A DNA stretch of 61,942 bases, filler included, from Candidatus Zapsychrus exili (GTDB taxonomy: Bacteria > Omnitrophota > Gorgyraeia > Zapsychrales > Zapsychraceae): assembly GCA_030765585.1 (NCBI GenBank). It is 3 parts of 3 records of this genome, joined end to end, with 100 filler letters (N's around TTAATTAATTAA, not from the genome) between each part and the next. Parts side by side here need not be neighbours in the genome. Positions count along the whole stretch, not along the records: positions 28,034 to 47,848 come from JAVCCJ010000126.1; 2 more parts are not named here. One strand, given 5' to 3'. This document shows, in pieces, positions 7,699 through 50,941 of this stretch. Under the pieces are notes generated by a model. The model saw only the letters and a program-made list of their open reading frames with translations. It had not been told where the DNA came from and ran no database searches. Numbering within the stretch: the stretch's first letter is position 1; every line of letters starts with the position of its first letter. Position numbers and translations under genes: made by a program.

Positions 7699-7722
7699 TT
7701 AAAAAATAAGTTTGAGGAAACT

Positions 7723-27933: not shown

Positions 27934-28033
27934 NNNNNNNNNNNNNNNNNNNNNNNNNNNNNNNNNNNNNNNNNNNNTTAATTAATTAANNNNNNNNNNN
28001 NNNNNNNNNNNNNNNNNNNNNNNNNNNNNNNNN
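27934..28033. other. Artificial contig linker
   Basis: 44 N + TTAATTAATTAA (stops in all six frames) + 44 N; identical to the linker at 47849. Confidence 0.97.
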
Positions 28034-28760: not shown

Positions 28761-28858
28761 GTTTTTATATAAATCTTTATATTATAGATAGTATAATAAT
28801 TATGGAAGGACTTCTAAATTTAGATATATCTTATCATAAGTTATTATACAATCAAGGC

Positions 28859-30509: not shown

Positions 30510-30567
30510 AAAATATTTATTATTTCCTGTAATATAAAAAAGTTATAGAACTTTCTAGAAACTTTTA

Positions 30568-31633: not shown

Positions 31634-31643
31634 AATAAATTTT

Positions 31644-32929
31644 TCACTTAATATCTTTTTCTTTCATTTTGTTCTTATAAATAAGATACATTGTAGCATA
31701 ATCAATGATATTTCTATCTTCTTCAGCCCCAAAATAGCGATTAGGGCTAAGGCCTCTAAAACTAAACACGCTGCCGTCAGGATGATGGCCTCTCCCTGTG
31801 ACTAAAAGCATCATAGAACCATCTTCTAAGTCAAACATACTTTTTAAGAGCACTTGTCCTGCAGAGTTTTCTCCCATAAGAGCAGCAATACCTCTTTTTT
31901 GCATTACTCCAGAGAATAACTCTGACGCGCTACCAGACCCTTCATTTATCAATATTGCTAAAGGGCCGCTATATTTAAATTTAGTTGGCATATTGGGAAC
32001 ATACAACATAGATTTCTCTTCATCTCTTCTTTGGAAATAAGCGAACTCTTCTCCTGGTCTGGTTCCAAAAAGAATGAAGAAAACTCTCTAGCAGCTAGTG
32101 GTGAGCCGCCAGGGTTACCTCTTAAATCAATTATCAGACCGTTTATTGGACCATTTTTCTTAAAATATTCTAAAAAACGAAAAATATCCTCAGCTGTCTT
32201 TCTATTAAAATGAACAATTTCTAGACCATATATACCTGCAGCTTTAGTGGGAAATATAAAAACCTGCTGCTTAAAATAATTCTTACTTACAACATCAATG
32301 TCCCTATGGACACTGTCACTTTTATCAAAAAAACCTATTCTTACCTGCTCATCTGCGAAAGGAGTTAATAATTCGTTAATCTTTTCTACATTAAACTCCT
32401 TTATATCATTTTCATCAATCTTTACAATAATATCGCCTATTCTTAAACCCTTTACATAAGCATCTGAACGTGGCTCTACTTGCGTAGCTTCATACCCATC
32501 TTTTACTAATTCACCCACTATTCCTAGATCAATCTTCCTTCCTAAAACGCTAGCTACATATTCTTTTGCTGGTTTAGGTGGATAAAAAGCAGAAAATATA
32601 TCATACGTCTCCTTCAATTTTTTTATAAGTAAATCAGCGCTTCTCCAGCGCGTAGAATCGATAACTTCATCCTTATCTTCTAGCTTGCTATAAATTTTCT
32701 CATCAAAAGTATTTAAAAACTCTTCAAAAACTCCACGTTCTATTGGCTTAAAATAATTCTTGTTCATCACATCATAAACTTCTTCAAAAAATTCAATATA
32801 CTTTGTATAGGCAGCACCTTTTTCGTCTTTATTAGCCGCATATACAATATTTTGCGCTCCAAAGAACAAAATAACGGACAATAATATGGTTCTATTAAAT
32901 AATGTCGTACGATTTAATTTAAAATACAT
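31644..32929 (-). pseudogene. S41 family (CtpA-like) C-terminal protease with PDZ domain, split by a 5-bp duplication
   Basis: IIDLRGNPGG in ORF 31958..32929 and GSASELF in ORF 31644..32009. Removing one CTGGT at 32054-32063 joins them (LEPGEEFAYFQRR...), giving 426 aa. Confidence 0.8.
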
Positions 32930-33014
32930 AAACTTATATTAAACAAGTTTGTAATGGCAAGGAAAAATATTAACAAGCGCATCTTCTCTTTATATTATAT
33001 ATAAGAATAAACTT

Positions 33015-33428
33015 TTATCTCATATACTTTTTAATATCAGAAGATTCAAATTGCGTTATACGGCCATCTTCGTTTTTATCAAAAACTTCCAGGATTCTTG
33101 AATTAATTGCAATCCAACCTCTTCTTTGCAGTGTAAAATGAATATCTAAAATAAATTTCTTAATCTCTTCTTTTTGAAGTATTTTATCCTTATTTAAATC
33201 ATATATTTCTTCAATTTTATTAGAAACTTCTGGGGAAGATTCCAACATTTCTTCAATCCTTAAATGGAATGGATTTTTAGAGATAGGTTTTACTTGTTGG
33301 GTATTTTTATTTTCTTCTACCTTAACAACATCTTTAATGTTTTCTGAAGAAGCAAATTTTATATAAACAAAAACGAACATAAAAAGAAAAGCAAAAGTTA
33401 ACATAACCAATTTTTTTATTTTAATCAT
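33015..33428 (-). CDS. Exported or membrane-anchored EF-hand-like protein
   Basis: N-terminal basic+hydrophobic segment; loops DLNKDKILQKEE and DKNEDGRITQFE. Confidence 0.6.
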   Translation of the reverse strand: MIKIKKLVMLTFAFLFMFVFVYIKFASSENIKDVVKVEENKNTQQVKPISKNPFHLRIEEMLESSPEVSNKIEEIYDLNKDKILQKEEIKKFILDIHFTLQRRGWIAINSRILEVFDKNEDGRITQFESSDIKKYMR

Positions 33429-33462
33429 ATTTAAAAGCTTTCTTAGTATTAATTTTTATTAT

Positions 33463-34200
33463 CTAAACTGCCATAAGCTCTTCTAAATTAATAACAACTT
33501 CTTTTTCTTCTACAAATTTCTTTAATAAATTGCTCTCGCTTTTTGTTAAAAAATTACCCTGCTCATAAACGCGAAATTCCTTCTTAAGATTATTTTTTAA
33601 ATCAATTAAAGAAATATCTGCATTAGATACAAAATCTCGATGATGTCTCCCTTTTCTATAATCAGGCATATCTTTTGGGGCTTCTAAATACTTTTCAATC
33701 TTATTTAAGTCAAAACCATAAAGTATCGTGCCATGATGTAAAATAAATTCTCTTCCTCTTTTTTGCGCATTGCCCGATATTTTCTTAGAATTAGATTTAA
33801 GAGCAATATCTGAGATTGGCATAAATGCGGATTCCAATCCCAATTTATCTAAAGCCCTTGTAACCTTGCCAAGAATAAAATTATAAGATTTGCCTATGTC
33901 CGATAACTTTGGATTTATCTTTTTTGAAAGGATTAAAGAATAATTAAAACAACCTCTTCCTTGCAACACAGTACCTCCGCCCGAGCATCTTTTTAAAACA
34001 GGTATTTTATCCTCCAGAACATTATCAATCTTTATATCTTCAGTCTCTTTAGAGATTCTCCCTAAAACAACAAAAGGTTCTTTGGATTCCCAAAATCTTA
34101 AGACCTCTCCAGTGTTTTCATTTTCTGCTAAATGAAAAAGAACTTCATCAAACAAAATATTTTCTTCTGGACTATTGAATGAAATATCTTTTAGTATCAT
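33463..34200 (-). CDS. Lipoate-protein ligase / octanoyltransferase family protein
   Basis: LRFWE, KRCSGGGTV, KKISGNAQ, HHGTILY; last gene of the gcv operon. Confidence 0.88.
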   Translation of the reverse strand: MILKDISFNSPEENILFDEVLFHLAENENTGEVLRFWESKEPFVVLGRISKETEDIKIDNVLEDKIPVLKRCSGGGTVLQGRGCFNYSLILSKKINPKLSDIGKSYNFILGKVTRALDKLGLESAFMPISDIALKSNSKKISGNAQKRGREFILHHGTILYGFDLNKIEKYLEAPKDMPDYRKGRHHRDFVSNADISLIDLKNNLKKEFRVYEQGNFLTKSESNLLKKFVEEKEVVINLEELMAV

Positions 34201-34206
34201 AAAAAA

Positions 34207-35652
34207 TTAAATAAAGTAGCTCGTATTAATGTCCATTGCTGCTTTTACTTCGTTTGGACGACTTACAGGGGTTGTTTTTGGAAAATCTTTAAAATCTTCT
34301 GGAGATTTTTTGCTTAAAACATCTGCTTCTTTCATTTTCTCAATGAACCAATCTATGGTACTTTTTGACTCTGTTTCAGTAGGTTCAATCATTATCGCTT
34401 CTTTAACAGTCAAAGGAAAATATACTGTAGGTGGATGCATGCCTTGATCTATCAAAAATTTTGCTATATCTATTGCGTGCACTCCTCTGCCTGCTTGCTT
34501 ACTTGCTGAAAAGACACATTCATGCATACAATGCCTATCATAAGCCAAGTCATAATATTCTTTTAACTGTTCTTTAATATAATTTGCATTTAACACAGCC
34601 ATATTGCTTACCTCTTTTAGGCCTTCTTTTCCTAAAAGAAGGATATATGCGTAAGCTCTTAACAGTATCGAAAAGTTCCCATAAAAAGACGCAATATATC
34701 CTATAGATTCTGGATAATCGTAATCTAGAGAATAAAATCCTTTATCATCTTTTATAACCCTAGATATTGGCAAATATGGTATAAGTTTTTTATTCACTCC
34801 AACAGGTCCTGCTCCTGGCCCTCCGCCACCATGCGGAGTTGAAAAAGTTTTGTGAATATTAATATGCACAATATCAAAACCAACATCTGCAGGCCTACAC
34901 CTTCCTAAAGTAGCATTTAAATTTGCTCCATCATAATACATAAGCCCGTCAACCGCGTGAATCATATCAGCTATCTTTTCAATATCAGAATTAAAAACTC
35001 CATGCGTATTAGGAGACGTTAACATAAGCCCAGCTACTTCATCAGTTACCACTTCTTTTAATTTTTCTAAATCTATAACACCATTTTTATCTGATGGGAC
35101 ACAAATCATTTCGTATCCTGCAATAGCTGCTGTTGCAGGATTTGTACCATGAGATGCGTCTGGTACAATAATATATTTTTTCTTATTTCCTTTTACTTTA
35201 TGATAAGCGGCTATCATCATAACACCAGTCAACTCTCCGTGGGCCCCCGCTAATGGCTGCATAGTAAATGCATCCATACCTGTTATTTCGCACAATAATT
35301 GCTCCATTTCAAAAAGCACTTCAAGCGAGCCTTGTACTAATTTCTCCCCTTGTTTTAATTGCGGCAATAAAGGGTGCATATCTGCAAATTCTGGCATAGC
35401 TGCTATTTTCTCTGTAAACTTTGGATTATATTTCATAGTACAGGACCCTAAAGGGTAAAAATGAGTATCTACTCCAAAGTTTCTTTTAGAAAGTCTTGAA
35501 AAGTGACGTATAACATCCAATTCAGAAAGCTCTGGCAATTTAGCAGCTTCTTTTCTTGTGTACTTAGATGGTACCTTAGCATCTCCAACATCGCTGTTAG
35601 GATTTAAATACCCTCTTAAGCCATCTACACTTTTTTCAAAAATTAATTCCAT
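34207..35652 (-). CDS. gcvPB: Glycine dehydrogenase subunit 2
   Basis: YPLGSCTMKYNP, AGAHGE, HGTNPATA, HKTFSTPHGGGGPG. Confidence 0.97.
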   Translation of the reverse strand: MELIFEKSVDGLRGYLNPNSDVGDAKVPSKYTRKEAAKLPELSELDVIRHFSRLSKRNFGVDTHFYPLGSCTMKYNPKFTEKIAAMPEFADMHPLLPQLKQGEKLVQGSLEVLFEMEQLLCEITGMDAFTMQPLAGAHGELTGVMMIAAYHKVKGNKKKYIIVPDASHGTNPATAAIAGYEMICVPSDKNGVIDLEKLKEVVTDEVAGLMLTSPNTHGVFNSDIEKIADMIHAVDGLMYYDGANLNATLGRCRPADVGFDIVHINIHKTFSTPHGGGGPGAGPVGVNKKLIPYLPISRVIKDDKGFYSLDYDYPESIGYIASFYGNFSILLRAYAYILLLGKEGLKEVSNMAVLNANYIKEQLKEYYDLAYDRHCMHECVFSASKQAGRGVHAIDIAKFLIDQGMHPPTVYFPLTVKEAIMIEPTETESKSTIDWFIEKMKEADVLSKKSPEDFKDFPKTTPVSRPNEVKAAMDINTSYFI

Positions 35653-35662
35653 AATTTTTCTA

Positions 35663-35795
35663 AAATACGAAACTCTAAACTCGAAATACTAAACAAATCA
35701 AAAGTAATAAATTCAAATAATTTCAATACCTTTTAAAATTTTGGTCATTCAAATTTCTAATTTGTTTCTAATTTCGAATTTAGGATTTAGGATTT
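35663..35795. repeat. Long imperfect inverted repeat built of heptamer units between gcvPA and gcvPB
   Basis: AAATACGAAACTCTAAACTCGAAATACTAAACAAAT (35663-35698) pairs with ATTTGTTTCTAATTTCGAATTTAGGATTTAGGATTT (35760-35795). Confidence 0.75.
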
Positions 35796-37133
35796 ATCCT
35801 TTAATACCTCTTTTAGAGCCTTTGCATAATTTAAAATCTCTTCTTTAGTTCTTTTTTCTGTTACAGCAATAATCATATAATGTTCCATGCCTTTATAATA
35901 TCGTCCTAACGGAAATCCTGCAGCGAAACCTTTGTTTATCATTTGCTCGACTACATAACATGCGTCCTTCGACAAACAAACTGTAAATTCATTAAATGTT
36001 GGTGAACTTCTTTTGACCTCTACACCTTTTATTTTCTCAAGCGTTTGCCTTGCGAATTCTCCTTTTTTATAATTAAGCTCGGCTAACTCCTTAAAACCCT
36101 GCTTACCCAACAAAGACATAAAGACCAAACCCTGTAAAGCACAAAGAGCTGCATTAGTACAAATATTTGAAGTTGCTTTTTCTCGTCTTATATGTTGCTC
36201 TCTTGCTTGCAAAGTATTTACAAAACATCTTCGACCTTGCTTATCTGTAGTCTCTCCAACAATTCTTCCTGGCATTTTACGCACATATTTCTTTTTAGTG
36301 GCCATAAATCCAAAATAAGGCCCTCCTAAATTAAGAGGTAGTCCTAAGCTTTGACCATCGCCAACTACAATATCAGCCCCCATCTCTCCTGGAGTTTTAA
36401 GTACGCCTAAAGATATAGGATACACGCTCTCAATAACTAAAATTCCTTTACTATGAGCTTGTTCAATAATGTCTGAATGATCATCAATGGCTCCAAAAAA
36501 GTTTGGATTTTGCAATATAATAGCAGCAGTATCTTTATCCAATAATTCACTAATTTTATCTCTATCGCTATGACCATGCGTGACAGGGGTTTCTTCAAAC
36601 TCAAAATTTAAATTGCTTGTATAAGTTTTTAAAATCTTTCTATATATTGGACTTACGCCACCATCCATAATAATTTTATTACGCTTAGTAACACGAATAG
36701 CCATCATAGCAGCTTCGTAAAGAGCTGTTCCTCCATCATAAAGAGAAGCGTTAGCAATATCCATATTGGTTAATGTACAAATAGAACTTTGAAATTCATA
36801 TAATGCCTGCAAAAACCCCTGTGAACATTCTGGTTGATATGGGGTATAAGCTGTATAAAATTCTGACCTAGACATAACTGTAGATAGTGCAGCAGGAACA
36901 TAGTGGTCGTAATAACCTCCACCAACAAAATTAATCAAACTAGAAGTATTTTTACAAGCAATGGCTTGAAGTTTTTTGACTACCTCAAATTCTGATTTAC
37001 CAGATGGCAGATTAAATGACTTTGGAGAATGCTTGGGTCCGATATCCTTAAACAAATCGTCTACAGATTCTACACCGATACATTTAAGCATCTCCTCTAC
37101 ATCTTTTTTTGTATTAGCAATATAAGGAATCAC
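35787..37133 (-). CDS. gcvPA: Glycine dehydrogenase subunit 1
   Basis: EFYTAYTPYQPECSQG, NASLYDG, QAREQHIRREKATSNICT. Confidence 0.97.
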   Translation of the reverse strand: MIPYIANTKKDVEEMLKCIGVESVDDLFKDIGPKHSPKSFNLPSGKSEFEVVKKLQAIACKNTSSLINFVGGGYYDHYVPAALSTVMSRSEFYTAYTPYQPECSQGFLQALYEFQSSICTLTNMDIANASLYDGGTALYEAAMMAIRVTKRNKIIMDGGVSPIYRKILKTYTSNLNFEFEETPVTHGHSDRDKISELLDKDTAAIILQNPNFFGAIDDHSDIIEQAHSKGILVIESVYPISLGVLKTPGEMGADIVVGDGQSLGLPLNLGGPYFGFMATKKKYVRKMPGRIVGETTDKQGRRCFVNTLQAREQHIRREKATSNICTNAALCALQGLVFMSLLGKQGFKELAELNYKKGEFARQTLEKIKGVEVKRSSPTFNEFTVCLSKDACYVVEQMINKGFAAGFPLGRYYKGMEHYMIIAVTEKRTKEEILNYAKALKEVLKDKS

Positions 37134-37204
37134 TGCGGATTAATCTCCAAAAAGCATAAAAATGCTTATTCTAAGTAATATGTAGAATTAAATAAATACT
37201 AACC

Positions 37205-37591
37205 TTAACCTTCAGATTCTAAAAACTTTCGATATTCATCGGCTGTCATTAGGTTGGAAGCCTCTTCGGGATCTGAAATTTCTATTTTTGCAATCCATCC
37301 ATTTTCATAAGGAGACTTGTTTATAAGGCCGGGCTCTACTTCTAAATCGTTATTTACCTCAACAATCTTTCCAGACATTGGAGAAAAAATATCACTTGCT
37401 GCTTTAACTGATTCAACAGAAGCAAGATCTCCAAATTGATCTATTTCGTCGTCCTTTGCTGGCAACTCTACAAATGTTATGTCGCCTAAAGATTCTTGAG
37501 CATAATCTGAAATGCCAACAGTCACAATATTATCTTCTATGCTGGCCCATTCATGTTCTTTCGTGTAAATAAAATTATCATTAACTTCCAT
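37205..37591 (-). CDS. gcvH: Glycine cleavage system H protein
   Basis: YTKEHEW, GISDYAQESLGDI, VESVKAASD (lipoyl-Lys). Confidence 0.97.
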   Translation of the reverse strand: MEVNDNFIYTKEHEWASIEDNIVTVGISDYAQESLGDITFVELPAKDDEIDQFGDLASVESVKAASDIFSPMSGKIVEVNNDLEVEPGLINKSPYENGWIAKIEISDPEEASNLMTADEYRKFLESEG

Positions 37592-37602
37592 ATGGCTTTC
37601 TC

Positions 37603-38700
37603 CTATTTTTTAAGGGAACCTCTTTTATAAAATAATTTTGACGAAACTACTGCTTCTTCTCTCTTGTTTTCATTACCAAACAAAATTTTATTATCCCTAT
37701 CAGCATGCTCTGTCAAAACAAATCCTAGTCCTATGCCACGCTCCATCTCTGGAGAAAATGTTCCGCTTGTCACAACACCAATCTCTTTATCCTCTGCATA
37801 AATTTTCTGCTCTGCGCGAGGAGACCTTCTGCTACTAGACACAAAACCAACTATTTTTCTTTTTAAGCCTTCTTGTTTTTGTCTAGTAATCACATCCTTA
37901 CCTATAAAATTTTTATTCAAATCAACAAATCTACTTAAACCAGACTCTAGCGGACTTACATCTTCGCCTAGCTCATGGCCATAAAGACTATATCCCATCT
38001 CAAGCCTTAAAACATCTCTTGCCCCTAGTCCAGCTGGTTTAACTTTGCCGTCTTCTAAAAGAGCATTCCAAAGAACCTTTACTTTATCTGCAGGATAATA
38101 TATTTCATATCCCAACTCACCAGTATAACCTGTTCGACTAATAATAACATTCTCACCCAAAAGTTGAAAATAATCAAATGTATAATAATCTAATTTACTG
38201 ACATCATCAACAAAAGAACTTAAAATTTCTCTTGATCTCGGGCCTTGTAAATCTAGCTTAGCAGTTGATTCTGACACATCTTTAAAACAAGCCTTAGAAC
38301 TCAATCTAGATTTAACATGTTCTTTATCTTTTTCTGTTGTTGCACTATTTACAACAAGAAACCACTTATCCTTATCTTCCCTAAAAACAATTAAATCATC
38401 AATCACGCCGCCGTCTTCATTTAGCATACAACCATATCTACATGACTTAATCGGCATATCAGATACAGACATGGTCAAAAGAGAATCCAATCCGCTTTCA
38501 ACACAATCTCCTTCTACTATAAACTCTCCCATGTGAGATATATCAAAAAGTGTTGCTTGCTCTCTAGTATATTTATATTCTGCTAAAATGCCTTCGTATT
38601 GTACTGGCATTTCCCAACCGCCAAAGTCTACCATTTTAGCAGAAAGAGCAATATGTGATTCGTAAAGAGGAGTTTTCTTTAAAGTTATTTTTTCTATCAT
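37603..38700 (-). CDS. gcvT: Glycine cleavage system aminomethyltransferase T
   Basis: FGGWEMPVQY, FDISHMG, SRTGYTGELGYE, GLGARDVLRLE. Confidence 0.97.
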   Translation of the reverse strand: MIEKITLKKTPLYESHIALSAKMVDFGGWEMPVQYEGILAEYKYTREQATLFDISHMGEFIVEGDCVESGLDSLLTMSVSDMPIKSCRYGCMLNEDGGVIDDLIVFREDKDKWFLVVNSATTEKDKEHVKSRLSSKACFKDVSESTAKLDLQGPRSREILSSFVDDVSKLDYYTFDYFQLLGENVIISRTGYTGELGYEIYYPADKVKVLWNALLEDGKVKPAGLGARDVLRLEMGYSLYGHELGEDVSPLESGLSRFVDLNKNFIGKDVITRQKQEGLKRKIVGFVSSSRRSPRAEQKIYAEDKEIGVVTSGTFSPEMERGIGLGFVLTEHADRDNKILFGNENKREEAVVSSKLFYKRGSLKK

Positions 38701-38715
38701 AAGTTGTGAAAATAC

Positions 38716-38865
38716 TGGCTCTTTCTTTATATAAATTGCAAAAAGAGCCTAATTAGAGCCATTCGAATTATGGCTCAAATATTTTATATAAATACCAAAA
38801 CTTTGTAAAGAACTAAACCCATTTTTATTGGCTCTTTCTCAATTAAACTAAAAAAGAAAGAGCCT
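38716..38865. repeat. Three GGCTC/GAGCC-stem hairpins upstream of gcvT
   Basis: GGCTCTTT...AAAGAGCC at 38717-38749 and 38830-38864; GAGCCAT...ATGGCTC at 38756-38776. Confidence 0.65.
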
Positions 38866-38951
38866 GATTACACGGATTTTAAAAAAAGATTTTACAGATA
38901 AAGACAACTTGTCTTAATCAGTATAATCCGCATTTAATCTGTGCAATCAGG
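38863..38951. repeat. Palindromic GATTACAC(G/A)GAT-type hairpin element
   Basis: CCTGATTACACGGATT...AATCTGTGCAATCAGG, with inner AAGACA/TGTCTT. Confidence 0.7.
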
Positions 38952-38983
38952 GCCATTACATATATTTTAAGAAAATGACCCTT

Positions 38984-41104
38984 TTATTCCCCTACTCTTT
39001 TTTGGAATTTAGTATATATTCTATAATAATTTTTATCGTCTTCTTTGCCTGTTCTGTAAATCTTTATACGATAAGGGCCTATTTCTTGCCAAAATGGTTG
39101 CTTAAATTTAAAAATGGTCAAACCTCCGTTAGGGTTCGATGTAATTTCAGACGCTTTAATTGGATATGATCCATTTTTCTCTTTAGACAGAACCCACACA
39201 GGCGCTTTTATATCAAGTGAATATAGATAAGCAACTAGTCCATCCGTAGGATTTCCAACTTTATATATTCTTGTGACCAAGCTTTTCATGTTAGACGGAT
39301 TATTAACAATATCCATAATACCTTTATATAAATAAACTTTTTCTTTAGTTCCTATGTTTCTCACATCATCTTTTACTAAATGTATATATTCTTTTGACGG
39401 AACATTTTTTCTTTTATCACGCTGCAATTTAGCAGCATCTAGCAACCAAACTCTTCCTAGATATTTTTTATTCTTAGAAAATTGATTTAACATTAAATAT
39501 CTATGAGCTAGTGTTTCTTGCTCGAGTGACCATATAAAACTTGATACAAGAGTAGGAAATGAACAAACGGCATAATCTGCTAAATTGCCTTTCCTTATCA
39601 ATTCATTCAAGAAAATATCATCATCAAATTGCGCATAATCACTATGTGCTGCCAAATATATAGAATCTTTTGTAGTTGGCGGAATAAGAATATATCCCTC
39701 CTTAGGCTCTAATATATGATTTATATCAACAACTTTTAATTTCTCTTTCAAACTTGGATTTAAACAATCAATCATAACAGAGCGATGAGGATGTTTTTTA
39801 TATGTATAGATTTGAGATATGCCCAACTTCTCCATTTTGTTTGAAAGAAAATGGGTTGCCATTCGCGTAGGATAGGCATCGCTAAAGAAAGCATATGCAT
39901 TTAATGCTATGTGCAAAAGAAAAACAATAATAACTAATACCTGTAACGATTTCTTAGGCAAAAATTTACCTATAATTTTACTATCTTCTTTTAAGAAAAT
40001 ATAACCACTATAACCTATCATAAAAACTATACCCAACATCGTTGGGAAAAAAGTAGTTCCACATTGGGCGATCTTTTTAAACTCCAGAACAAAAGGAACA
40101 ATAAAACTTAGAACTATAACACCTATAGTTCTATAAAGAATTACTTTATCTTTTAAATAAGAGAAAGCGCACTTGTATATGAAATAAACTAAACATATGC
40201 AATATAGAGGAAACAAAACAGGCATTGTTATCATTAAAAATTTAAATATCCAAAACCATCCACCATTGGTTTGTGCTATATCCGTTTTGATCCATTGCTG
40301 CAGCACAGGTTGATTATAATAAAAATGATTATTATCAGACGCTGTATTTATATATGACATTGAGCCACTTAAACTACCTAAAGCTGTAGGATAAGTAAAA
40401 TAAATAAACGCAGCTAAAAATCCAAGAAAAGCACATATTATAAATTCTATCGACTCTCTGTAGGAGATGCCGCCTTTCTCTTCTTTATCTAAAATAAAAA
40501 ACTTATATAAGAAAACAGCAAAACAAAATGGGATATACGCTGCAGAAGTTATTGATGCAAAAAATGCGCATCCAAGAGATGCCCCAGAAAGAACGTAACA
40601 TGTGTATTTCAAAACAGATTTCTTAGATGCAAACAAAAGTAGTGCAATAGCGATAAGCACAAACATCAATCCTGTTATTTGATGCCTAATAAATAAAATA
40701 TACACATACGGCCAATAACTAGTTACGAAAACAAGATAAGTTATCCAAGCCGACTTTACATTCCATATCTTATAAGCAATTAAATAAATAAGAACAGATG
40801 CTATAAAAAAACTAAAAAGACACACAACAATAAAAGGCCTTAATGTGACAAGGTCGCCCATAATTCTTTGAACATCGGAAACAAGTAACAAAAACATTTC
40901 CTTGCTATGTAACCACAGAAGATTTGTATAATTATGTATCTCAGAGATATGTTTAAGCTCTGGTATTCTTAATGTAGCTGGAAAATAATAATCTTCTGCA
41001 TCGGTGGGCCAAAAGTTCATATTCCAAATCAAGCACCCCAAAGCAATAGAAATTATCAATGAACATAAAATAACAAGTACTAAATTTTTTTGTATAGTTG
41101 ACAT
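38984..41104 (-). CDS. Large multi-pass membrane protein, possibly GT-C (ArnT/PMT-like) glycosyltransferase
   Basis: About 10-11 TM segments, acidic motif WPTDAEDYY in the first loop, soluble C-terminal region; family assignment is inference. Confidence 0.55.
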   Translation of the reverse strand: MSTIQKNLVLVILCSLIISIALGCLIWNMNFWPTDAEDYYFPATLRIPELKHISEIHNYTNLLWLHSKEMFLLLVSDVQRIMGDLVTLRPFIVVCLFSFFIASVLIYLIAYKIWNVKSAWITYLVFVTSYWPYVYILFIRHQITGLMFVLIAIALLLFASKKSVLKYTCYVLSGASLGCAFFASITSAAYIPFCFAVFLYKFFILDKEEKGGISYRESIEFIICAFLGFLAAFIYFTYPTALGSLSGSMSYINTASDNNHFYYNQPVLQQWIKTDIAQTNGGWFWIFKFLMITMPVLFPLYCICLVYFIYKCAFSYLKDKVILYRTIGVIVLSFIVPFVLEFKKIAQCGTTFFPTMLGIVFMIGYSGYIFLKEDSKIIGKFLPKKSLQVLVIIVFLLHIALNAYAFFSDAYPTRMATHFLSNKMEKLGISQIYTYKKHPHRSVMIDCLNPSLKEKLKVVDINHILEPKEGYILIPPTTKDSIYLAAHSDYAQFDDDIFLNELIRKGNLADYAVCSFPTLVSSFIWSLEQETLAHRYLMLNQFSKNKKYLGRVWLLDAAKLQRDKRKNVPSKEYIHLVKDDVRNIGTKEKVYLYKGIMDIVNNPSNMKSLVTRIYKVGNPTDGLVAYLYSLDIKAPVWVLSKEKNGSYPIKASEITSNPNGGLTIFKFKQPFWQEIGPYRIKIYRTGKEDDKNYYRIYTKFQKRVGE

Positions 41105-42549
41105 TATTTTTTCTTTCTAGAAAATTTTCTAAATAATTTATTAATAAAATTAATACAAACAATACGTACAGCACTTATGGCTGGTTTTAATACGGCAAAT
41201 ATTCCATGTCTTTTTATCATTGGCCATATTCTCCACCAACATAAATATATTCGTATAAGCCCTTTTCTTTGTAGAAATATTACATCCTCTGGCTTTAAAC
41301 CATTAACCTCCATTACCGCCGATCCGTATCTTTGATAATTAGAAAAATTTGTATCAACTATTTTTAAACCAAACTGTTCTTTTTTTGCCATCTCAAACAT
41401 CTCAGTTCCTGGATAAGGCATCGCAACACTATAGGTAGCATGTTGTATATCTTTGGCTTTACATAAAAAGTCTACCGTTCTTTTTATACTTTCTGCATCT
41501 TCACCCGGAAGTCCAAGCATTACAGAGTTAATTGTCTCAATCCCATATCTTGCATTAAGCTTATTTGCTTCAATACAACTTTCCATCGAGATTTCTTTTT
41601 TTATAATCTTCCTAATCTTAGGATCTGCTGTTTCTAACCCAAAACTCATTCGTATTAAACCACAGCTTTTAAACTCTTTTACTATTTCTTCATCCCAAAT
41701 ATTTGCGCGTGTGCTCCCTTCAAAAGTAAAATCTAGATTATTCTTTTTTATTTCTCTGCAAAGAGAAAATATATATTCACGATTTAACGTCAGTGTATCA
41801 TCTAAGAAATAAATATGTTTTATATTTAAATCATTTACCAAATATTTAAGTTCTTTAATAACTTCCTCTAAAGAGCGTCTTCTAACTTTTTTCCCATACA
41901 AACTATTAGCACAAAAAACACAATCAAAAGGACAACCTCTGCTCATAAAAAAAGATGTATAATTTTTAACCCCTTGTAAAGTTCCAACAGAATACTTTTT
42001 ATAAGGAATCAAATGCCTTGCCGGCCATGGAATAGTGTCTAAATCATCGATTCTTTGTATGTCGCCGTGATAAACAATTCTGCCCTCTTCTTTTCGCATT
42101 ACGCCACAAATTCCATCACCCCTTTTGCCTTTTTCAAAACTTTTTAAGAAATCAAAGAAAATACCTTCACTTTCACCTATAAATAAATAATCAAAAATAT
42201 CTAAAAAGGCTTCTTCCCGAACCAAAGACGGATGAGCTCCTCCAACAGCAATTGGAGTTGAGAAATTGTTCTTAAGTAATGACGCTACCTCAGTTATTCT
42301 ATGAAAAAATGGAGTAGTGGCTGATAAACCAATTAAGTCTGGTTTAAATTGAGAAACTCTCTCTATTATTGTTTTATCATCAAGCTCTTCTACTTCAGCA
42401 TCTATTATTTGAACTTCCCAGCCAGCTTGTTCTGCGATAGCTCCAATATAACAAAGACTCAAAGGCGGAAAAGACGATGCCTTTTTAGCAATATTTTTTA
42501 AAACTCCAAATGTGGAGCACCAAGAAGGGAATACAAGTGATAGTCTCAT
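41104..42549 (-). CDS. B12-binding radical SAM protein
   Basis: PPLSLCYI and VGGAHPS (cobalamin-binding), SRGCPFDCVFC (CxxxCxxC), MLGLPGE, PYPGT. Confidence 0.92.
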   Translation of the reverse strand: MRLSLVFPSWCSTFGVLKNIAKKASSFPPLSLCYIGAIAEQAGWEVQIIDAEVEELDDKTIIERVSQFKPDLIGLSATTPFFHRITEVASLLKNNFSTPIAVGGAHPSLVREEAFLDIFDYLFIGESEGIFFDFLKSFEKGKRGDGICGVMRKEEGRIVYHGDIQRIDDLDTIPWPARHLIPYKKYSVGTLQGVKNYTSFFMSRGCPFDCVFCANSLYGKKVRRRSLEEVIKELKYLVNDLNIKHIYFLDDTLTLNREYIFSLCREIKKNNLDFTFEGSTRANIWDEEIVKEFKSCGLIRMSFGLETADPKIRKIIKKEISMESCIEANKLNARYGIETINSVMLGLPGEDAESIKRTVDFLCKAKDIQHATYSVAMPYPGTEMFEMAKKEQFGLKIVDTNFSNYQRYGSAVMEVNGLKPEDVIFLQRKGLIRIYLCWWRIWPMIKRHGIFAVLKPAISAVRIVCINFINKLFRKFSRKKK

Positions 42550-42575
42550 TTTTAATTTATTTCTTAAAATTTTGA

Positions 42576-42616
42576 CCAGTCGAAGCTAAATGCGAAAGCC
42601 TTTTAGCGAAGACTGG
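42576..42616. repeat. Hairpin element fused to the tRNA 3' CCA
   Basis: CCAGTC-GAA-GCTAAA-TGC-GAAA-GC-CT-TTTAGC-GAA-GACTGG; the final TGG is the CCA of the split tRNA. Confidence 0.75.
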
Positions 42617-42669
42617 CGCGCCTGAGAGGATTCGAACCTCCCAACACCCAGTTCCGAAGACTGGTGCTC

Positions 42670-42689
42670 CCTGCCTGCCGGCAGACAGG
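42670..42689. mobile_element. 20-bp palindromic mini-insertion within the tRNA D arm
   Basis: CCTGCCTGCCGGCAGACAGG separates ...GGTGCTC from TATCCAGCT, which are contiguous (GGTGCTCTATCCA) in the intact copy. Confidence 0.7.
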
Positions 42690-42727
42690 TATCCAGCTAC
42701 GTCTTATAACGTTAACACTTCTTAAAA

Positions 42728-42801
42728 CGCGCCCGGGAGGACTCGAACCTCCAACACCCAGTTCCGAAGACTGGTGCTCTATCCAATTGAACTACGGGCG
42801 C
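42728..42801 (-). tRNA. tRNA-Arg (anticodon TCG), intact, CCA not encoded
   Basis: Reverse complement GCGCCCGTAGTTCAATTGGATAGAGCACCAGTCTTCGGAACTGGGTGTTGGAGGTTCGAGTCCTCCCGGGCGCG; anticodon arm CCAGT-CTTCGGA-ACTGG. Confidence 0.93.
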
Positions 42802-42895
42802 TTAAACTAGTAAATCCATCAAGTCCAGACCGAAATGTCAGGACAAGCGCATAAAAATAACATTTTCTTCACAAAAAACATTGCAACATCCAGCT

Positions 42896-42937
42896 TCCGC
42901 CACAATAGATGGCGGATTCGCCAATCTGTTTGGCGAA
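42896..42937. mobile_element. Two tandem 21-bp palindromic mini-insertions between tRNA positions 13 and 14
   Basis: TCCGCCA-CAATAGA-TGGCGGA and TTCGCCA-ATCTGTT-TGGCGAA between ATCCAGCT and GAGCTACAGGCGC. Confidence 0.7.
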
Positions 42938-43182
42938 GAGCTACAGGCGCTTAATCTAAATTACATACTGGTTGAAATCGCACGCTCTGTTTTATCTTAA
43001 AATCACACAAACAGAAAACAGGCAAGCGCTTAATTTATTCGTAGCAAACATCATCACAATCTTCATTGTTTGCGACAACCAAATTTACATCTCTTTTGTT
43101 ATTTAAATTAACTTTGAATAATTTTATATAAAAAAATACTGATAAAGAAATAAAGAAACAAATTATAGCAATAATAGAAAAT

Positions 43183-44097
43183 TTATTTATCTTCACTTTT
43201 TAATCTTTCTACAGCTTCTTTCATTTCTTCATATGAAGATTGATGAGTTTCTATTACCTTCATTACTGAATCATCAAAATAATGTATTATAGAGCCTATA
43301 TTCATGTCACCAACAAATGGAGCTTTATGATCTCTTCTTTTTTTCATACCATGAATATGAACTCCAATCAATTTGTCCTTATATGCATCCAATGCCTCTT
43401 TCTGAGAAAAAATTCCCAACCTTTCGTTCATTTCAGCATGTCCTAAATCGTGCCAATAATACATACCTTTGCTGTTAAAACGAGAAAGAAAATATCCTAT
43501 CTCATCAAAATTAGGAATTTCCAGTGGATAGTATCTTGTTTCAAGCCCTATCTTTATTCCTTGGCTTTTGGCATAGTCACAAACAACCTCAAAACTTTTA
43601 TCTAATGCCTTTATGTGCTCAGGCGACTTATCTTTTCTTATCTTTAATATGCGAGATTTTTCCTGTTCAAATTCTTCTGTTTTAAACTTTCCGTCCATAT
43701 ACAAATCAAATAAATATTTTGATCTTATATCCTGATCTATATCAACATCTCCTGCATGTAGCACAACAACAGGACAATCAAATTTCTTAGCTGTATCTAT
43801 TGTATTTTTCGTCCAACAAACAGCCTTTTGCCTCTCATCTTCATCTAAAGAAGACAGACGATAATAATTAGAATTATGTCTAGGCGATATCTCATCATCA
43901 GGGACAGGACAAAAATTATGAACACTTACAACTTTGATATTTAATTCTTTAACAAAACCATAAAGCTGATCTAAGTGCTCTTTGGTAATAGAATAATTTA
44001 TTTCAATGGCGTCTATTCCCAAATCCTTTACCTGACAAAGCCATGCTTTTATATCATTATCGGGTTTATAATTCCAAGATGTAGAAATTGCTAACAT
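43183..44097 (-). CDS. Sugar-phosphate isomerase/epimerase (AP endonuclease 2 TIM-barrel) family
   Basis: SVHNFCP, VVLHAG, IGLETR, WHDLGH, GVHIHG, DHKAP metal-site pattern. Confidence 0.8.
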   Translation of the reverse strand: MLAISTSWNYKPDNDIKAWLCQVKDLGIDAIEINYSITKEHLDQLYGFVKELNIKVVSVHNFCPVPDDEISPRHNSNYYRLSSLDEDERQKAVCWTKNTIDTAKKFDCPVVVLHAGDVDIDQDIRSKYLFDLYMDGKFKTEEFEQEKSRILKIRKDKSPEHIKALDKSFEVVCDYAKSQGIKIGLETRYYPLEIPNFDEIGYFLSRFNSKGMYYWHDLGHAEMNERLGIFSQKEALDAYKDKLIGVHIHGMKKRRDHKAPFVGDMNIGSIIHYFDDSVMKVIETHQSSYEEMKEAVERLKSEDK

Positions 44098-44106
44098 AGT
44101 CTCGCT

Positions 44107-44307
44107 TTACCCTTCTGAGCCTAAGTTATCAACGACTTTCTTAACTTCCATTTCAGCCTTTTGTATCTTCTCTTTACACACATTTATCAAAGATACGGCT
44201 TCTTTTACTGCGCAAGAAAGTTCATCAACATCAATCTCTTCGTTTTCTATCTTTTCTACAATTTCTTCTAATCTTTTCATCGCTTTGCTATATTTTACTT
44301 CAGCCAT
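44107..44307 (-). CDS. xseB: Exodeoxyribonuclease VII small subunit
   Basis: YSKAMKRLEEIVEKIE...C.EK.QKAE; follows xseA. Confidence 0.93.
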   Translation of the reverse strand: MAEVKYSKAMKRLEEIVEKIENEEIDVDELSCAVKEAVSLINVCKEKIQKAEMEVKKVVDNLGSEG

Positions 44308-45631
44308 TTTGTCCTCCGGTTTTTATATTTATTATACGACTTGTTAAAAATCCATCTGCTGTTTCTGTGCTAATATCGTCCTGTTCTTTCGCACTCTTAA
44401 TACTTTTTATAATCTTTCCATCTTTGTCTCTAGTTACGGAAAATCCTCTTTTTAAAGTGTTTACAGGATCAAGTGCATCAACCAATTTCTGAAATCCTAT
44501 AATATTCTTTTTATCATTTTTCAACCTTGAAATTACAACTTTCATCAAACAATCTTTTTTCGTATCTATTATATTTCTGAAATCTTTCAACAAAACTTCT
44601 GGCCTATGTTTAAATAGCTCTATAATCCTAATAATTTCCGCATTATGTTCTTTTAAATATCTATTAGTGTTTGCCTCTAACTTGGCAGCTAAATTTTTTA
44701 ATTTACCCTTATCTTCTGCGATTCTCTGTTGAGAAATATTTATTATTTCCTCTAATATTTGGTCAATATCTATAAGATACTCTTCTGTCAGTCCTACCAA
44801 ATATTGGGCAACAGCTGTAGGCGTCTTAAAGAACGAATGCGCTGCTAAATCAGTTACGCTCATATCTATTTCATGACCTATTCCACTTAATACCGGTATT
44901 TTAAGAGATGCAATTTTTTCTGCAATAACCTGGCTATCAAAACAACTTAAATCTGATATTGACCCTCCGCCACGAGTCACTACAATTGCATCTAAATTCT
45001 TTACTTTATTTAATGCACCCAAGGCCTTACATACATCTTTTTCAGCATTCTTACCCTGCATTAAAGCATTTTTGAAATAAACTTTAAATCCAAATCCACT
45101 CTTCTTAAGCTCTGATAAGAAATCATTATAGGCTGCTGAATCGCCTGAGGTTATGAGCCCTATATTAAGCGGGACAACTGGGGCATCCAATTGTTTATTT
45201 TTGTCGAGTATTCCTTTTTCCTGAAGAAGCGCTATGAGCTTTCTTTTTTCTTGCGCTATTTTTCCTAAAGTATAAACAGGGTCAATACTTTCAACGCTTA
45301 AGCGAACTCTTCCATGAGGAGGATAAAAATCAACTTTACAAGCAAACTTAACCTCAATATCATCTTTTAAAGAAAAGGCATTTTCGCTTTTCTTTAAGAT
45401 TTCTTCAATGTATGGTCTTCTGCTTGCCCAAATAACCAAATCAATACAAGCCTTTGTATCATTTGTTCCTTGATCTTTTTCGACAAGCTGAAAAAAAACA
45501 TGTTTCTTATTTTTGCTTCTATTATATTGTTGGATTTCTCCACAAACCCATAAAGACTGCGGAAACCCCATATTGATAACATCTTTTATGAGATTATTAA
45601 GTTCTGATACTGTTAAAAATTCTTTATCCAT
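44300..45631 (-). CDS. xseA: Exodeoxyribonuclease VII large subunit
   Basis: LTVSELN, RGGGSISDL, SGIGHEID, TPTAVA, TLKRGFS. Confidence 0.96.
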   Translation of the reverse strand: MDKEFLTVSELNNLIKDVINMGFPQSLWVCGEIQQYNRSKNKKHVFFQLVEKDQGTNDTKACIDLVIWASRRPYIEEILKKSENAFSLKDDIEVKFACKVDFYPPHGRVRLSVESIDPVYTLGKIAQEKRKLIALLQEKGILDKNKQLDAPVVPLNIGLITSGDSAAYNDFLSELKKSGFGFKVYFKNALMQGKNAEKDVCKALGALNKVKNLDAIVVTRGGGSISDLSCFDSQVIAEKIASLKIPVLSGIGHEIDMSVTDLAAHSFFKTPTAVAQYLVGLTEEYLIDIDQILEEIINISQQRIAEDKGKLKNLAAKLEANTNRYLKEHNAEIIRIIELFKHRPEVLLKDFRNIIDTKKDCLMKVVISRLKNDKKNIIGFQKLVDALDPVNTLKRGFSVTRDKDGKIIKSIKSAKEQDDISTETADGFLTSRIINIKTGGQNG

Positions 45632-45750
45632 GATTATACAATTAAGAAGGGTTTAGAAAGTAGTATTCTATATACAAAACATCACTTCTACAAGAAAAAT
45701 AATATAGATATATTAATATAAGTATTATTTAAATAAAAAGGTGGGGAGTT

Positions 45751-46146
45751 TTAATAAGCCGATGCTCTCCTGTTTGATTGCCGAGCTGTTTTTAACTTAT
45801 CTTTTTGCTTCCTTCTTGTTTCTTTCATAGCTAACTTGTTAGCCTTGCTTTTTCGCTTTAACTCTTGATTCGTTGCTCTTGTCTTTCTTTTTACATCTTT
45901 CATTTTTCGTTTTGTATCAACCTGCTTGCTCTTCAAATCTCTTCTAAGCTGTTTTATATGCGCCAAATTGCTTTTAATTTTTTGCTTTATATTGTCAGTA
46001 TGAGACTTAATATCTCTCATAAATCTTTTAAATTTCTGTTGAGCGCTTATTTTGCGCGCAGGTCTCCTTGATTGCCGTGCATTTGATGACACAGAAATAA
46101 ATAGAAAAATGAACAAAATTATAAATATTTTATATTGTTTTTTCAT
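45751..46146 (-). CDS. Hypothetical exported, highly basic coiled-coil protein
   Basis: Signal-peptide-like N-terminus, then K/R-rich helix; co-oriented with neighbours. Confidence 0.55.
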   Translation of the reverse strand: MKKQYKIFIILFIFLFISVSSNARQSRRPARKISAQQKFKRFMRDIKSHTDNIKQKIKSNLAHIKQLRRDLKSKQVDTKRKMKDVKRKTRATNQELKRKSKANKLAMKETRRKQKDKLKTARQSNRRASAY

Positions 46147-46159
46147 AATAAATACAAAT

Positions 46160-46858
46160 TTAAGCTATATTTTTATATTCTGAACTATTTGCCTCTTTAA
46201 GTCCACAATATAATTGTACTTGTGAAATCATATAAAAAGGAATAAAAATCACTGAAAATATCTCAACAGCTGCTTTTGTCAGTCCAACATCAATATTTTG
46301 AAAAAACTTAATAAACAAAATAGGAGTTAAAGATAGCATCGTTAAAATAAGCAAAAATTGAAGCACTATCCAGAATTTTCCCTTTATCAGCTCAATACTG
46401 CCTTTAAATGCTTCAGTATATTTTTTATTCTCTAAAACAACAATAACATCTGCGAACATAAAGATTGCTCCAATAAACAATCCTGGAAGCACAAAAAAGA
46501 CAAATCCCATCCCCATAAGAAACAAAACTGACATATAAACAGCGACATATCTCAAATATCTTCCTTTTGTTTCTTCAAAAACCTTTGCAAAGCTTAAAAC
46601 CAAACCAGAACGCAATTTATAAGACGCATAAATCAACATAATAGCAATACGGCATAAAATTAAAGAACTTGTGATAATAATAAGAAATATAGCTTCTTCT
46701 GGCTTTTTAAAGAAATTATTTATAATCTGTCTCGTAGCCAAATTAAATACTCCATAAAAAAGACTCAGGCTAATAAAAAACTGAAAATTCTTCTTATACA
46801 TTTCCATTGAATTGCTAAGGATCTTAGACAAGTCGATAATATTATTTATTTTATTCAT
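46160..46858 (-). CDS. Hypothetical integral membrane protein
   Basis: About five TM segments, FVLPG...VVLE...AFKGS..L.KG.FW pattern. Confidence 0.7.
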   Translation of the reverse strand: MNKINNIIDLSKILSNSMEMYKKNFQFFISLSLFYGVFNLATRQIINNFFKKPEEAIFLIIITSSLILCRIAIMLIYASYKLRSGLVLSFAKVFEETKGRYLRYVAVYMSVLFLMGMGFVFFVLPGLFIGAIFMFADVIVVLENKKYTEAFKGSIELIKGKFWIVLQFLLILTMLSLTPILFIKFFQNIDVGLTKAAVEIFSVIFIPFYMISQVQLYCGLKEANSSEYKNIA

Positions 46859-47848
46859 TGTACCCTTCTTTAATGTTATTAATTAACGTTCTATTGTGTA
46901 TGGCAGATGCATGCCGAGGATTTATTATAAGCGCTTGCTCGTAATCAGCAAGTGCTAAATCGTACTTTTCAATTTCCTTAAATAAATTTCCTCTATTGTA
47001 ATAAAAATCAGCAGAACTTTTATCTATTTCTATAGCCTTATTAAAATCCTTCAAAGCCAAATTATATTTCCCTCTAGACTTATAAAGTATGGCTCTATTA
47101 TTATACCCTTGTGCAAAATTAGGATTAACAGATATGCTTTTGTTATATTCTAAAATAGCTAAATCATAATTTCCTGCCATATCATATACTAACCCTCTAT
47201 TTGTATACGCAGATGCTATCTCTGCATCTAATCTTATTGACATATTAAAATCCTTTAAAGCTAAATCGTTCTTCTTAGCATAAAGATAAATAAGACCTCT
47301 ATTATTATATACACTAGCATTTTTAGGGTCTGACTTTATAGCTTTATTAAAATCATTAAACGCCAAGCCCAACTTACCGCTCAACTTATAAAGCATACCT
47401 CTGTTATTAAGTGCTTTTCCATAATCTGGCTTTATTTCTAACGCTTTATTATAATCTAAAAAAGCTAAATCATATCGATTCAAACTTATATATGCTTCTC
47501 CTCTATTAGCAAAAGCTAAATATTCGTCACTGTAATTATCTATGACACGACTCCACAAACTCACACTATCTTTCCATACTAAAACCTGAGAATATGTCTG
47601 CCTACCAAAAAAAGAAAATGCTACCAATACTGCGATAAGAACAACTTTACCTACAATTTTGCTATGAGCTGTTTTCTTGATTGTTTCATAAATCAAATAT
47701 CCTATAAATATACAAAATCCTAAACTAGGTAAATACATATATCTATCAGCGACTATTGTTCTGTCTACTTTATAATCAAATCTTAGAAGAAAAAATATTG
47801 ATACTAAAAAATACGCCCAAGAAAAAACAAACCACTTATTCTTCCTAA
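46851..47848 (-). CDS. Membrane protein with C-terminal TPR array (TMTC-like), 5'-partial
   Basis: Frame open to the gap (RKNKWFVFS...VADRYMYLPSLG), VWKDSVSLW, then about six NRG-type TPR repeats. Confidence 0.82.
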
Positions 47849-47948
47849 NNNNNNNNNNNNNNNNNNNNNNNNNNNNNNNNNNNNNNNNNNNNTTAATTAA
47901 TTAANNNNNNNNNNNNNNNNNNNNNNNNNNNNNNNNNNNNNNNNNNNN
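47849..47948. other. Artificial contig linker
   Basis: 44 N + TTAATTAATTAA + 44 N. Confidence 0.97.
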
Positions 47949-50652: not shown

Positions 50653-50846
50653 TCAACTTTCTTTTCGCATAGAAAATGATAAAATAATATTTTTGTTCTT
50701 ATTTTGTTTGATCAATTCATACTCTTTAAGAACAAGTAACCATTTACTAGTAATTGCCTGTTGTGTTGTTTTATTCACTTGGTAACTACCTCCTTTCCTG
50801 GTTTTATCCAGTATAGCGGTTGTTACCGAAATTGTGAAGTACTACA
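50653..50846 (-). mobile_element. Probable IS481-like left-end remnant with truncated transposase
   Basis: Minus strand: TGTAGTACTTCACAATTTCGGTAACA end, internal TTCACA-17-TATACT promoter, AAGGAGGT SD, then GTG-started 41-aa ORF (50778-50653) MNKTTQQAITSKWLLVLKEYELIKQNK...; family assignment from recalled resemblance only. Confidence 0.5.
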
Positions 50847-50941
50847 CTGCCGGTAGGCACGTAAAGTCCCGTTGGAACCACGTCCCTTTACGGGCAGGGA
50901 ATCTCTGCTTCTCTAGTTGTGAGGCGGTAGCATAGCTTTCC

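Follow-up and report, generated by a model that had tools for sequence, protein, structure and literature searches.

The DNA considered here (the window, 61,942 nucleotides, filler included) comes from the draft genome of Candidatus Zapsychrus exili (GCA_030765585.1), which comprises 129 contigs and 2.04 Mb with 34% G+C. It is made up of contigs C52 and C56 and the last part of C59, with stretches of N between them at 27934-28033 and 47849-47948, so that arguments from gene neighbourhood stop at these joins. Our subject is a tRNA-Arg(TCG) gene on C56 (window positions 28034-47848) that lies in two pieces and carries three short palindromes in its D arm. In what follows G, C and L denote genomes, contigs and fetched loci, respectively, and G000 is the source genome.

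The locus holds two forms of tRNA-Arg(TCG), types A and B (Table 1). Type A is represented by two outer pieces; between them lies an intact type B gene, which is the working copy. Read along the minus strand, the order is GCGCCTGTAGCTC, two hairpins of 21 nt each and AGCTGGAT, then a 187-bp segment (42701-42887) containing the type B gene, then GTAGCTGGATA, a palindrome of 20 nt and GAGCACC...CCA. The acceptor strands of the outer pieces pair together, and the pieces, when joined in a script, are folded by ARAGORN into a cloverleaf tRNA-Arg(TCG). Bases of the D arm occur in both outer pieces, and the two break points fall within this arm with an overlap of about 15 nt. At the Rfam RF00005 cut-off of 29 bits the intact copy passes and the 3' remnant fails; ARAGORN nevertheless calls a gene at 42614-42692, which includes palindrome bases borrowed from the insert. 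The first-pass annotation, made from the sequence alone, held that removal of the palindromes restores the gene exactly. This is not the case, since 187 bp with a working paralogue separate the halves and the 3' piece is 5 nt short.

Two familiar arrangements were considered and rejected. An archaeal-type tRNA intron or split tRNA gene does not fit, since the tRNAs and the genes around them are of bacterial type and the two halves enclose an intact paralogue. Neither does the remnant of an integrase attachment site: there is no integrase nearby and the segment is merely 187 bp long.

Table 1. Features of the split tRNA-Arg(TCG) locus and of the composite repeat at 50836-50899 (window positions).
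Feature	Coordinates	Strand	Basis
5' remnant of type A tRNA-Arg(TCG), GCGCCTGTAGCTC (acceptor 5' strand, bases 8-9, D-stem 5' strand)	42938-42950	-	matches the intact type A of relatives
42-nt double hairpin between D-stem 5' strand and D loop	42896-42937	-	pattern match, folding
D-loop piece AGCTGGAT, end of the 5' remnant	42888-42895	-	sequence reading
86-nt spacer of the 187-bp segment, with imperfect hairpin 42823-42844	42802-42887	-	position of the GIY-YIG gene in G033
Intact type B tRNA-Arg(TCG), without encoded CCA	42728-42801	-	ARAGORN; Rfam 64.1 bits
27-nt spacer, intact tRNA to 3' remnant	42701-42727	-	sequence reading
Second copy of D-arm bases GTAGCTGGATA, start of the 3' remnant	42690-42700	-	5 nt short of a full D arm
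20-nt palindrome, one mismatch from CCTGCCTGCCGGCAGGCAGG, between D loop and D-stem 3' strand	42670-42689	.	pattern match
3' remnant of type A tRNA-Arg(TCG), D-stem 3' strand (GAGCACC...) to encoded CCA	42614-42669	-	Rfam 15.2 bits only
Trailer hairpin after the CCA (with its overlap into the CCA, to 42616, it reads CCAGTC-TTCG-CTAAA..TTTAG-CTTCG-ACTGG)	42576-42613	-	conserved downstream of tRNA-Arg in several related genera
Composite repeat, halves of a 20-mer-type palindrome around a 33-nt hairpin	50836-50899	+	same composite in C51

The letters and coordinates first given for the three palindromes are correct, as is their placement where stem and loop of the D arm meet, with the doublet at the 5' stem/loop border and the 20-mer at the loop/3' stem border. 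The insert borders cannot be shifted by even one base, so there is no target duplication, again as originally described. The doublet is formed by abutting 21-nt hairpins (42917-42937 and 42896-42916) with stems of 7-8 bp. These are the only matches in the window to the pattern YYCGCCA-N7-TGGCGRR, and the 20-mer at up to three mismatches is likewise confined to its own site; neither pattern gave a match in 100 dinucleotide shuffles, and a chance origin of both is excluded. Folding as DNA hairpins yields -8.2, -7.4 and -5.2 kcal/mol singly and -16.3 kcal/mol for the doublet (z = -7.4). Across the genome there are 108 GC-rich perfect hairpins, compared with 26 in one Markov shuffle.

In a draft of 129 contigs, and in a window that joins three of them, palindromes might arise as assembly or read fold-back artefacts, one of the outcomes that the first-pass annotation had named as fatal to its proposal. 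Contigs from three public runs (X1, X2 and X3, belonging to three studies that may be one campaign, one run perhaps being the source sample) cover 42434-42871, 42843-43052, 42800-43026 and 42580-42730 and reproduce both remnants with 0 differences. Decayed copies of the palindromes exist, and the 20-mer is present in isolate genomes of several genera. The chance of an artefact is negligible in our estimation. The same runs, from the same lake samples, also contain short contigs of high depth (up to about 148x) that match 42662-42698, the palindrome with D-loop bases, beyond which they turn into the 5' portion of another tRNA. They suggest that more abundant organisms of the lake have a D-arm insertion of the same kind.

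In a search of 40 relatives, with the locus as query, type A tRNA-Arg(TCG) was found without interruption in four related genera (G012, G021, G017 and G005), usually between the same sugar-isomerase-like gene and gcvT. Empty counterparts of the filled site, which the first-pass annotation had advised looking for, therefore exist, and the hairpins are insertions relative to the ancestral gene. The 3' remnant with its trailer is 85-87% identical to G012, G021 and G011, whereas the intact type B copy has its nearest counterparts in G031 (93%) and G033. The same division is seen in alignment scores, which are better for the joined remnants against the type A genes of relatives and better for the intact copy against G031 and G033. 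The split copy, uninterrupted in the four genera, is the ancestral gene. This tRNA-Arg(UCG) gene has been remodelled by selfish DNA: type A was cut in the D arm, and the 187-bp segment supplied type B as its replacement. The core of the trailer hairpin gives 88-97% matches at multiple places in G033 and other relatives.

The order of features in the window is also that of G033, in which a 5' type A remnant with two D-loop hairpins is followed by an 89-aa GIY-YIG gene, a type B tRNA, a hairpin-rich stretch, the last type A bases and gcvT; the window has 86 nt in place of the GIY-YIG gene. The layout with such a gene occurs again in a WWE3 bacterium (L096), in a gammaproteobacterium (L098, gene truncated) and in a viral contig (L249), and the 20-mer is found within the D arm of the tRNA remnant in two of these, L096 and L249. 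A second locus of G000, tRNA-Lys(CTT) on C13, comprises a 5' remnant with a double hairpin, an intact gene, and a hairpin with the 3' remnant, with no nuclease gene. Small GIY-YIG genes of this genome, fragments included, number about nine, and three of these loci adjoin tRNA genes or fragments. The 187-bp segment may be a nuclease-less derivative of a small tRNA-lodged GIY-YIG cassette like that of G033. Several results weigh against this part of the interpretation. There is no nuclease gene in the window insert, and only the tRNA is common with relatives, so that a cassette origin is read from the layout. The 86-nt spacer, which would correspond to the gene between remnant and regenerated tRNA, contains no open reading frame and has no similar DNA among the 40 relatives; beyond its tRNA, the segment (query 42701-42885) shows no homology in the loci of 11 relatives.

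A history that needs no cassette would be a local tandem duplication of tRNA-Arg followed by deletions, the hairpins piling up neutrally in the dead copies. Spare 5' tRNA fragments at other loci (L205, L209, L211 and C13) do match their own neighbouring tRNA, and their short upstream flanks look duplicated; in C63 about 100 bp downstream of tRNA-Arg(TCT) are clearly duplicated in tandem, and the palindromes are widespread in intergenic DNA. Such a history fits poorly with remnants of type A around a central gene of type B, each having closest relatives of its own in other genera, and with two break points that overlap in the D arm. Nor does it account for the nuclease gene within the same order in G033, and neutral accumulation does not predict different palindromes at the same D-arm border. 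We regard it as an unlikely explanation.

The palindromes themselves are far from confined to this locus. Counting them genome-wide, one of the checks proposed at the outset, showed both families to be multi-copy across genomes. Our phylum sample comprised 401 genomes, with the reversed pattern as control, and the control gave 0 matches in all genomes for either family. The 20-mer pattern CCTRYCTGCCGGCAGRYAGG is present in 151 of the 401, at up to 51 copies per genome, and almost all copies are the perfect palindrome CCTGCCTGCCGGCAGGCAGG. The exact 20-mer extends, moreover, to at least 10 other phyla: named genomes gave no fewer than 123 stretches with it, where about one match would be expected by chance if equal base frequencies are assumed. 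Among the matches listed, the hosts include Patescibacteria, Bacteroidota (isolates included), Planctomycetota, Gamma- and Deltaproteobacteria, Bdellovibrionales, Nitrospirota and Chloroflexi; a further 40 stretches belong to viral contigs. Some copies are nested in other 20-mers or in other repeat families. In G166, the richest genome, four palindrome-dense regions have copies between housekeeping genes and within other repeats.

The doublet, two abutting YYCGCCA-N7-TGGCGRR hairpins, occurs in 55 of the 401 genomes, with further G000 copies in C13 and C70. Its stems are perfect in most copies and their ends covary (TC..GA, CC..GG, CT..AG, TT..AA), and the loops are semi-conserved. Three copies are lodged in genes for RNase P RNA, the one that was aligned to the model (L207) being in the P9 loop, and another is at the start of a cobalamin riboswitch. 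In L205, L209, L211 and C13 the doublet follows the TAGCT of a short 5' fragment of tRNA-Arg or tRNA-Lys, directly upstream of an intact tRNA; the window doublet is placed one base further along.

Conserved hairpins near tRNA genes could instead have evolved where they stand and serve as RNA or DNA signals, such as processing sites, terminators or protein binding sites. The covarying doublet stems would suit such a role, as would the conserved trailer hairpin after tRNA-Arg genes and the position of the doublet upstream of tRNA genes in all three G000 copies. It is difficult to reconcile with letter-identical 20-mers in unrelated contexts and phyla, with clean-bordered interruptions not only of other repeats but of tRNA and RNase P RNA, and with orthologous sites that are empty; no T run follows the hairpins. 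We judge this explanation highly improbable.

Insertion into the D arm is recurrent. The 20-mer occupies it in the window, in tRNA-Arg(CCT) (C41/C51) and in L055, L074, L096, L249, L089 and L046. The insertion point is the D-loop/D-stem border in tRNA-Arg(TCG) and tRNA-Arg(CCT) of G000 and in L055, and 2 nt further in for L074 and L096. That a different palindrome, of 33 nt, sits at this border in L098 suggests that the site, and not the insert, is what determines the position. For the doublet, a tRNA D-arm motif is found at 6 of 30 junctions, compared with 7 of 2862 control positions, and by eye at two more (L195 and L196). Other structured RNAs are affected as well, with a 20-mer in the P3 loop of the RNase P RNA in L041. 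That gene (in G103:C1; positions 1464-2004 of the fetched locus) is 541 nt long, the model having 367 positions; at least four of its apical loops contain large extra stretches, one of them with the 20-mer, and hairpin insertions may riddle the gene. In two viral loci (L241 and L215) a tRNA-Met-like gene has the 20-mer after its variable loop and before its T stem; ARAGORN still calls the gene in L241 (92 nt).

When the 20-mer is excised, the flanks of 5 of 110 loci form a hairpin (stem of at least 6 bp) with the junction at its loop/3' stem border, compared with 0.7% of 5329 control positions, and in 2 of 110 the junction falls at a hairpin tip (at least 5 bp), compared with 0.1% of controls. 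The first-pass annotation had these elements targeting structured single-stranded sites. Both families are indeed enriched there over controls, and apical loops of RNase P RNA are among their positions; most copies are elsewhere. A preference for hairpin loops is therefore partly supported. The proposal that very short hairpins form a class inserted in trans has fared better: the empty sites, the multi-copy families and the recurrence of one D-arm position from tRNA gene to tRNA gene give good support to mobility in trans.

Taking these observations together, we favour mobile mini-palindromes lodged in the remnants of a split and replaced tRNA gene, a reading that we put at about two chances in three, the enzyme being left out of this figure. 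The palindromes would be non-autonomous elements that enter exposed hairpin loops or stem/loop borders by being copied in trans in the form of single-stranded hairpins, and redundant tRNA remnants would tolerate them. A small UPF0213/Ssn-like GIY-YIG nuclease might break the D-arm region, with a copy of the palindrome then built into the break, where it would also protect the remnant from being cut again. Two facts argue against such a reading: most copies of the 20-mer lie away from hairpin borders, and there is no perfect 20-mer in G000, where the family, with the one-mismatch copy of the window and about five more decayed copies, looks inactive.

The enzyme is a separate matter. A small GIY-YIG nuclease is in our view the most likely driver, and is put forward tentatively; its link to the palindromes is circumstantial. 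Six of the small GIY-YIG proteins gave only sub-threshold NCBIfam matches, to the group I intron endonuclease model, and a PDB sequence search with such proteins gave weak matches to UPF0213 (1ywl and 1zg2). The census of genes is unfavourable to this candidate. A small GIY-YIG frame was found within about 1.2-1.5 kb of the 20-mer in four of 110 loci (a fifth match is a frame of 714 aa), near one of 40 viral 20-mer loci and near two of 30 doublet loci, using a profile built from five proteins that may miss distant members. Counts of GIY-YIG matches were 5, 4, 11, 5 and 13 in palindrome-rich genomes and 2, 4, 4, 2 and 2 in palindrome-free ones, which does not discriminate between the groups; these were five genomes of each kind chosen by palindrome count, and as relatives they are not independent. 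Small GIY-YIG genes were present in all five palindrome-free genomes. No gene is flanked by palindromes in the four dense regions of G166. The first-pass annotation had suggested seeking a nuclease or transposase gene consistently flanked by the same palindromes; at the GIY-YIG and Y1 loci of G000, as in these four regions, none was found, and the GIY-YIG genes of G000 are flanked by hairpins of other kinds. Finally, no GIY-YIG nuclease is known to join DNA, so a separate copying step would be needed.

The enzyme originally suggested was of the HUH/RAYT type. Under this proposal the palindromes are REP-like hairpins moved in trans by an HUH Y1 transposase (RAYT or IS200/IS605-type TnpA), and the doublet is a minimal pair of left and right ends. 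Peel-and-paste transposition gives hairpin ends without target duplication (see also the discussion in PMC11893778). The source genome has three to four Y1_Tnp genes; T is found at -1 in 19 of 33 oriented doublets, GTAGCT precedes the doublet in several tRNAs, and one Y1 gene of G166 is 1.5 kb from a copy of the 20-mer. Genes for Y1_Tnp were counted in the same ten genomes and are present in every one, with slightly more in the palindrome-rich (5, 4, 5, 5 and 5) than in the palindrome-free (3, 3, 3, 2 and 2), a similarly weak trend that does not separate the groups. However, neither the three window hairpins nor 81 flanks of the 20-mer have an adjacent GTAG or CGTC tag, and the 20-mer is a perfect palindrome, whereas E. 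coli TnpA-REP requires GTAG and, for binding, a stem mismatch (PMC3333891). Flanks of the 20-mer have no duplication and weak preferences, A at -1 in 34 and A at -3 in 37 of the 81; no conserved tetranucleotide target is apparent in these or in the doublet flanks. The Y1 genes of G000 (C33, C65 and C49) are not flanked by our hairpins, and those in C33 and C65 adjoin GTAG-tagged repeats of other sequence. The HUH/RAYT suggestion is thus not supported, and an HUH enzyme seems an improbable driver. What probability remains belongs to another enzyme or to template switching during repair.

The two remaining hairpins of the first-pass annotation are as follows. The one at 42823-42844 is present, with a stem in which only 7 of 8 positions pair, and has no further copy in the genome at up to four mismatches. 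The partial copy of the 20-mer at 50847-50859 proved to be part of the 64-nt composite listed in Table 1, and it is the whole composite that recurs: C51 has it in a pseudo-copy of tRNA-Arg(CCT), where D loop and D stem adjoin. An insertion sequence beside 50836 was considered and discarded: the upstream open reading frame encodes a LacI-family regulator and the downstream one MnmG, with no transposase.

Other tRNA loci and repeats of G000 deserve mention. Double-hairpin inserts of about 50-57 nt lie in the T loops of 3' pseudo-copies of tRNA-Arg(CCT) (C51:198-310) and tRNA-Arg(TCT) (C63, about 1660-1760). On C26 (5162 nt) a GIY-YIG gene is split across both contig ends, which suggests a circular or tandemly repeated unit; beside it is the 5' half of tRNA-Pro(GGG), and ahead of this half come a tRNA fragment of 8 nt and a long hairpin. 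On C70 (about 7458-7760) the anticodon loop of a tRNA-Asn(GTT)-like gene is interrupted by a group I intron (RF00028, 80.8 bits; L253:484-698), and the 42-nt double hairpin copy of that contig is about 70 nt upstream. Further repeats were noted in C33 (3011-8426), C65 (9456-16261) and C22 (3971-4276). Classical GTAG-tagged REP doublets cluster near Y1_Tnp genes (C33:5040 and C65:3044). Repeat families distinct from these REPs are SRM-like ATCCCTGC/ATTCCCGC-N4 palindromes and GGGGAGAGG..GGTGAGGGG repeats that mark several contig ends.

If the hairpins are mobile, a widespread and overlooked selfish-DNA process is reshaping stable-RNA genes across bacteria. It disturbs annotation, as the miscalled remnant illustrates, and hairpin-bearing tRNA copies go unpredicted; the inflated RNase P RNA gene described above would be a further consequence. 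A bolder proposal, which we advance as a tentative possibility, is that the 20-mer and the 42-nt doublet are the smallest known bacterial transposable elements, consisting of nothing but a single-stranded hairpin that codes for no protein, and copied in trans into exposed hairpin loops of tRNA, of RNase P RNA and of further repeats by an unrecognised small nuclease-type enzyme, perhaps the UPF0213/Ssn-like GIY-YIG protein of cassettes and phages. Were this so, identity of the 20-mer over more than 10 phyla would imply continuing horizontal spread of the enzyme together with its recognition sequence. The interest lies chiefly in that cross-phylum identity and in the missing partner enzyme: a 20-mer that is letter-identical over phyla, without a known partner protein, offers a handle on a possible new DNA-moving activity. 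Ssn nucleases and IS200/IS605 enzymes are useful tools of a comparable kind.

Small palindromes that are tolerated inside genes, RNA genes included, are familiar from Rickettsia palindromic elements and from miniature elements derived from IS200/IS605. Those are 100-150 bp long and lineage-specific, whereas the present ones measure 20-42 bp and one is pan-bacterial. The 20-mer string was not found in literature text, the supplements of PMC11893778, which could list related motifs, lying outside the search; a keyword search brought up only papers on mitochondrial hairpin elements, SegB and Ssn. Four systems, namely REP/RAYT, Ssn/SRM, SegB and the mitochondrial elements, invite comparison, and the hairpins fail at least one defining feature of each.

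The REP and BIME sequences served by RAYT (PMC3333891, PMC3733652) are likewise short (20-40 nt), GC-rich, multi-copy palindromes that are moved in trans and probably act as single-stranded hairpins. Our families differ in having no GTAG/CGTC tag, in one of them being a perfect palindrome and in the lack of a flanked transposase gene. Their copies are identical across phyla rather than species-specific, and are found inside tRNA and RNase P RNA genes.

Ssn, with its NTS/SRM repeats (Chenal et al., 2025, PMC11893778), is an enzyme that acts on single-stranded hairpin DNA, and it too involves small single-domain GIY-YIG genes with hairpin repeats. G000 contains both SRM-like ATTCCCGC-N4-GCGGGAAT repeats and its complement of small GIY-YIG genes or fragments. 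The three hairpins do not, however, conform to the NTS/SRM motif described there (CGTCATTCCC..GGGAAT type), adjacency to GIY-YIG genes is rare, and PMC11893778 mentions neither tRNA nor any insertion of its repeats.

Free-standing GIY-YIG genes of the phage T4 SegB type (PMC2330249) are also small, lie among or within tRNA genes and have a resistant replacement allele alongside, a layout that fits G033, L096, L098 and L249. The window, in contrast, has no nuclease gene, its host tRNA was duplicated and split rather than co-converted, and the palindromes have no SegB counterpart.

The mitochondrial hairpin elements (fungal DHE, sponge RHE and yeast GC clusters; PMC2800124) are GC-rich hairpins in AT-rich DNA, with helices of about 10 bp and 7-nt loops. 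Like ours, they include tandem double hairpins and insertions kept in structural RNA genes, and the enzyme that mobilises them is not known. The elements described here differ in residing in bacterial chromosomes and phage-like contigs, in one being letter-identical across phyla and in their strong link to spare tRNA fragments. Short GC-rich hairpins, often paired, placed in intergenic DNA and in the loops of structural RNAs are nevertheless what we find in both, a likeness rather than membership of the same family.

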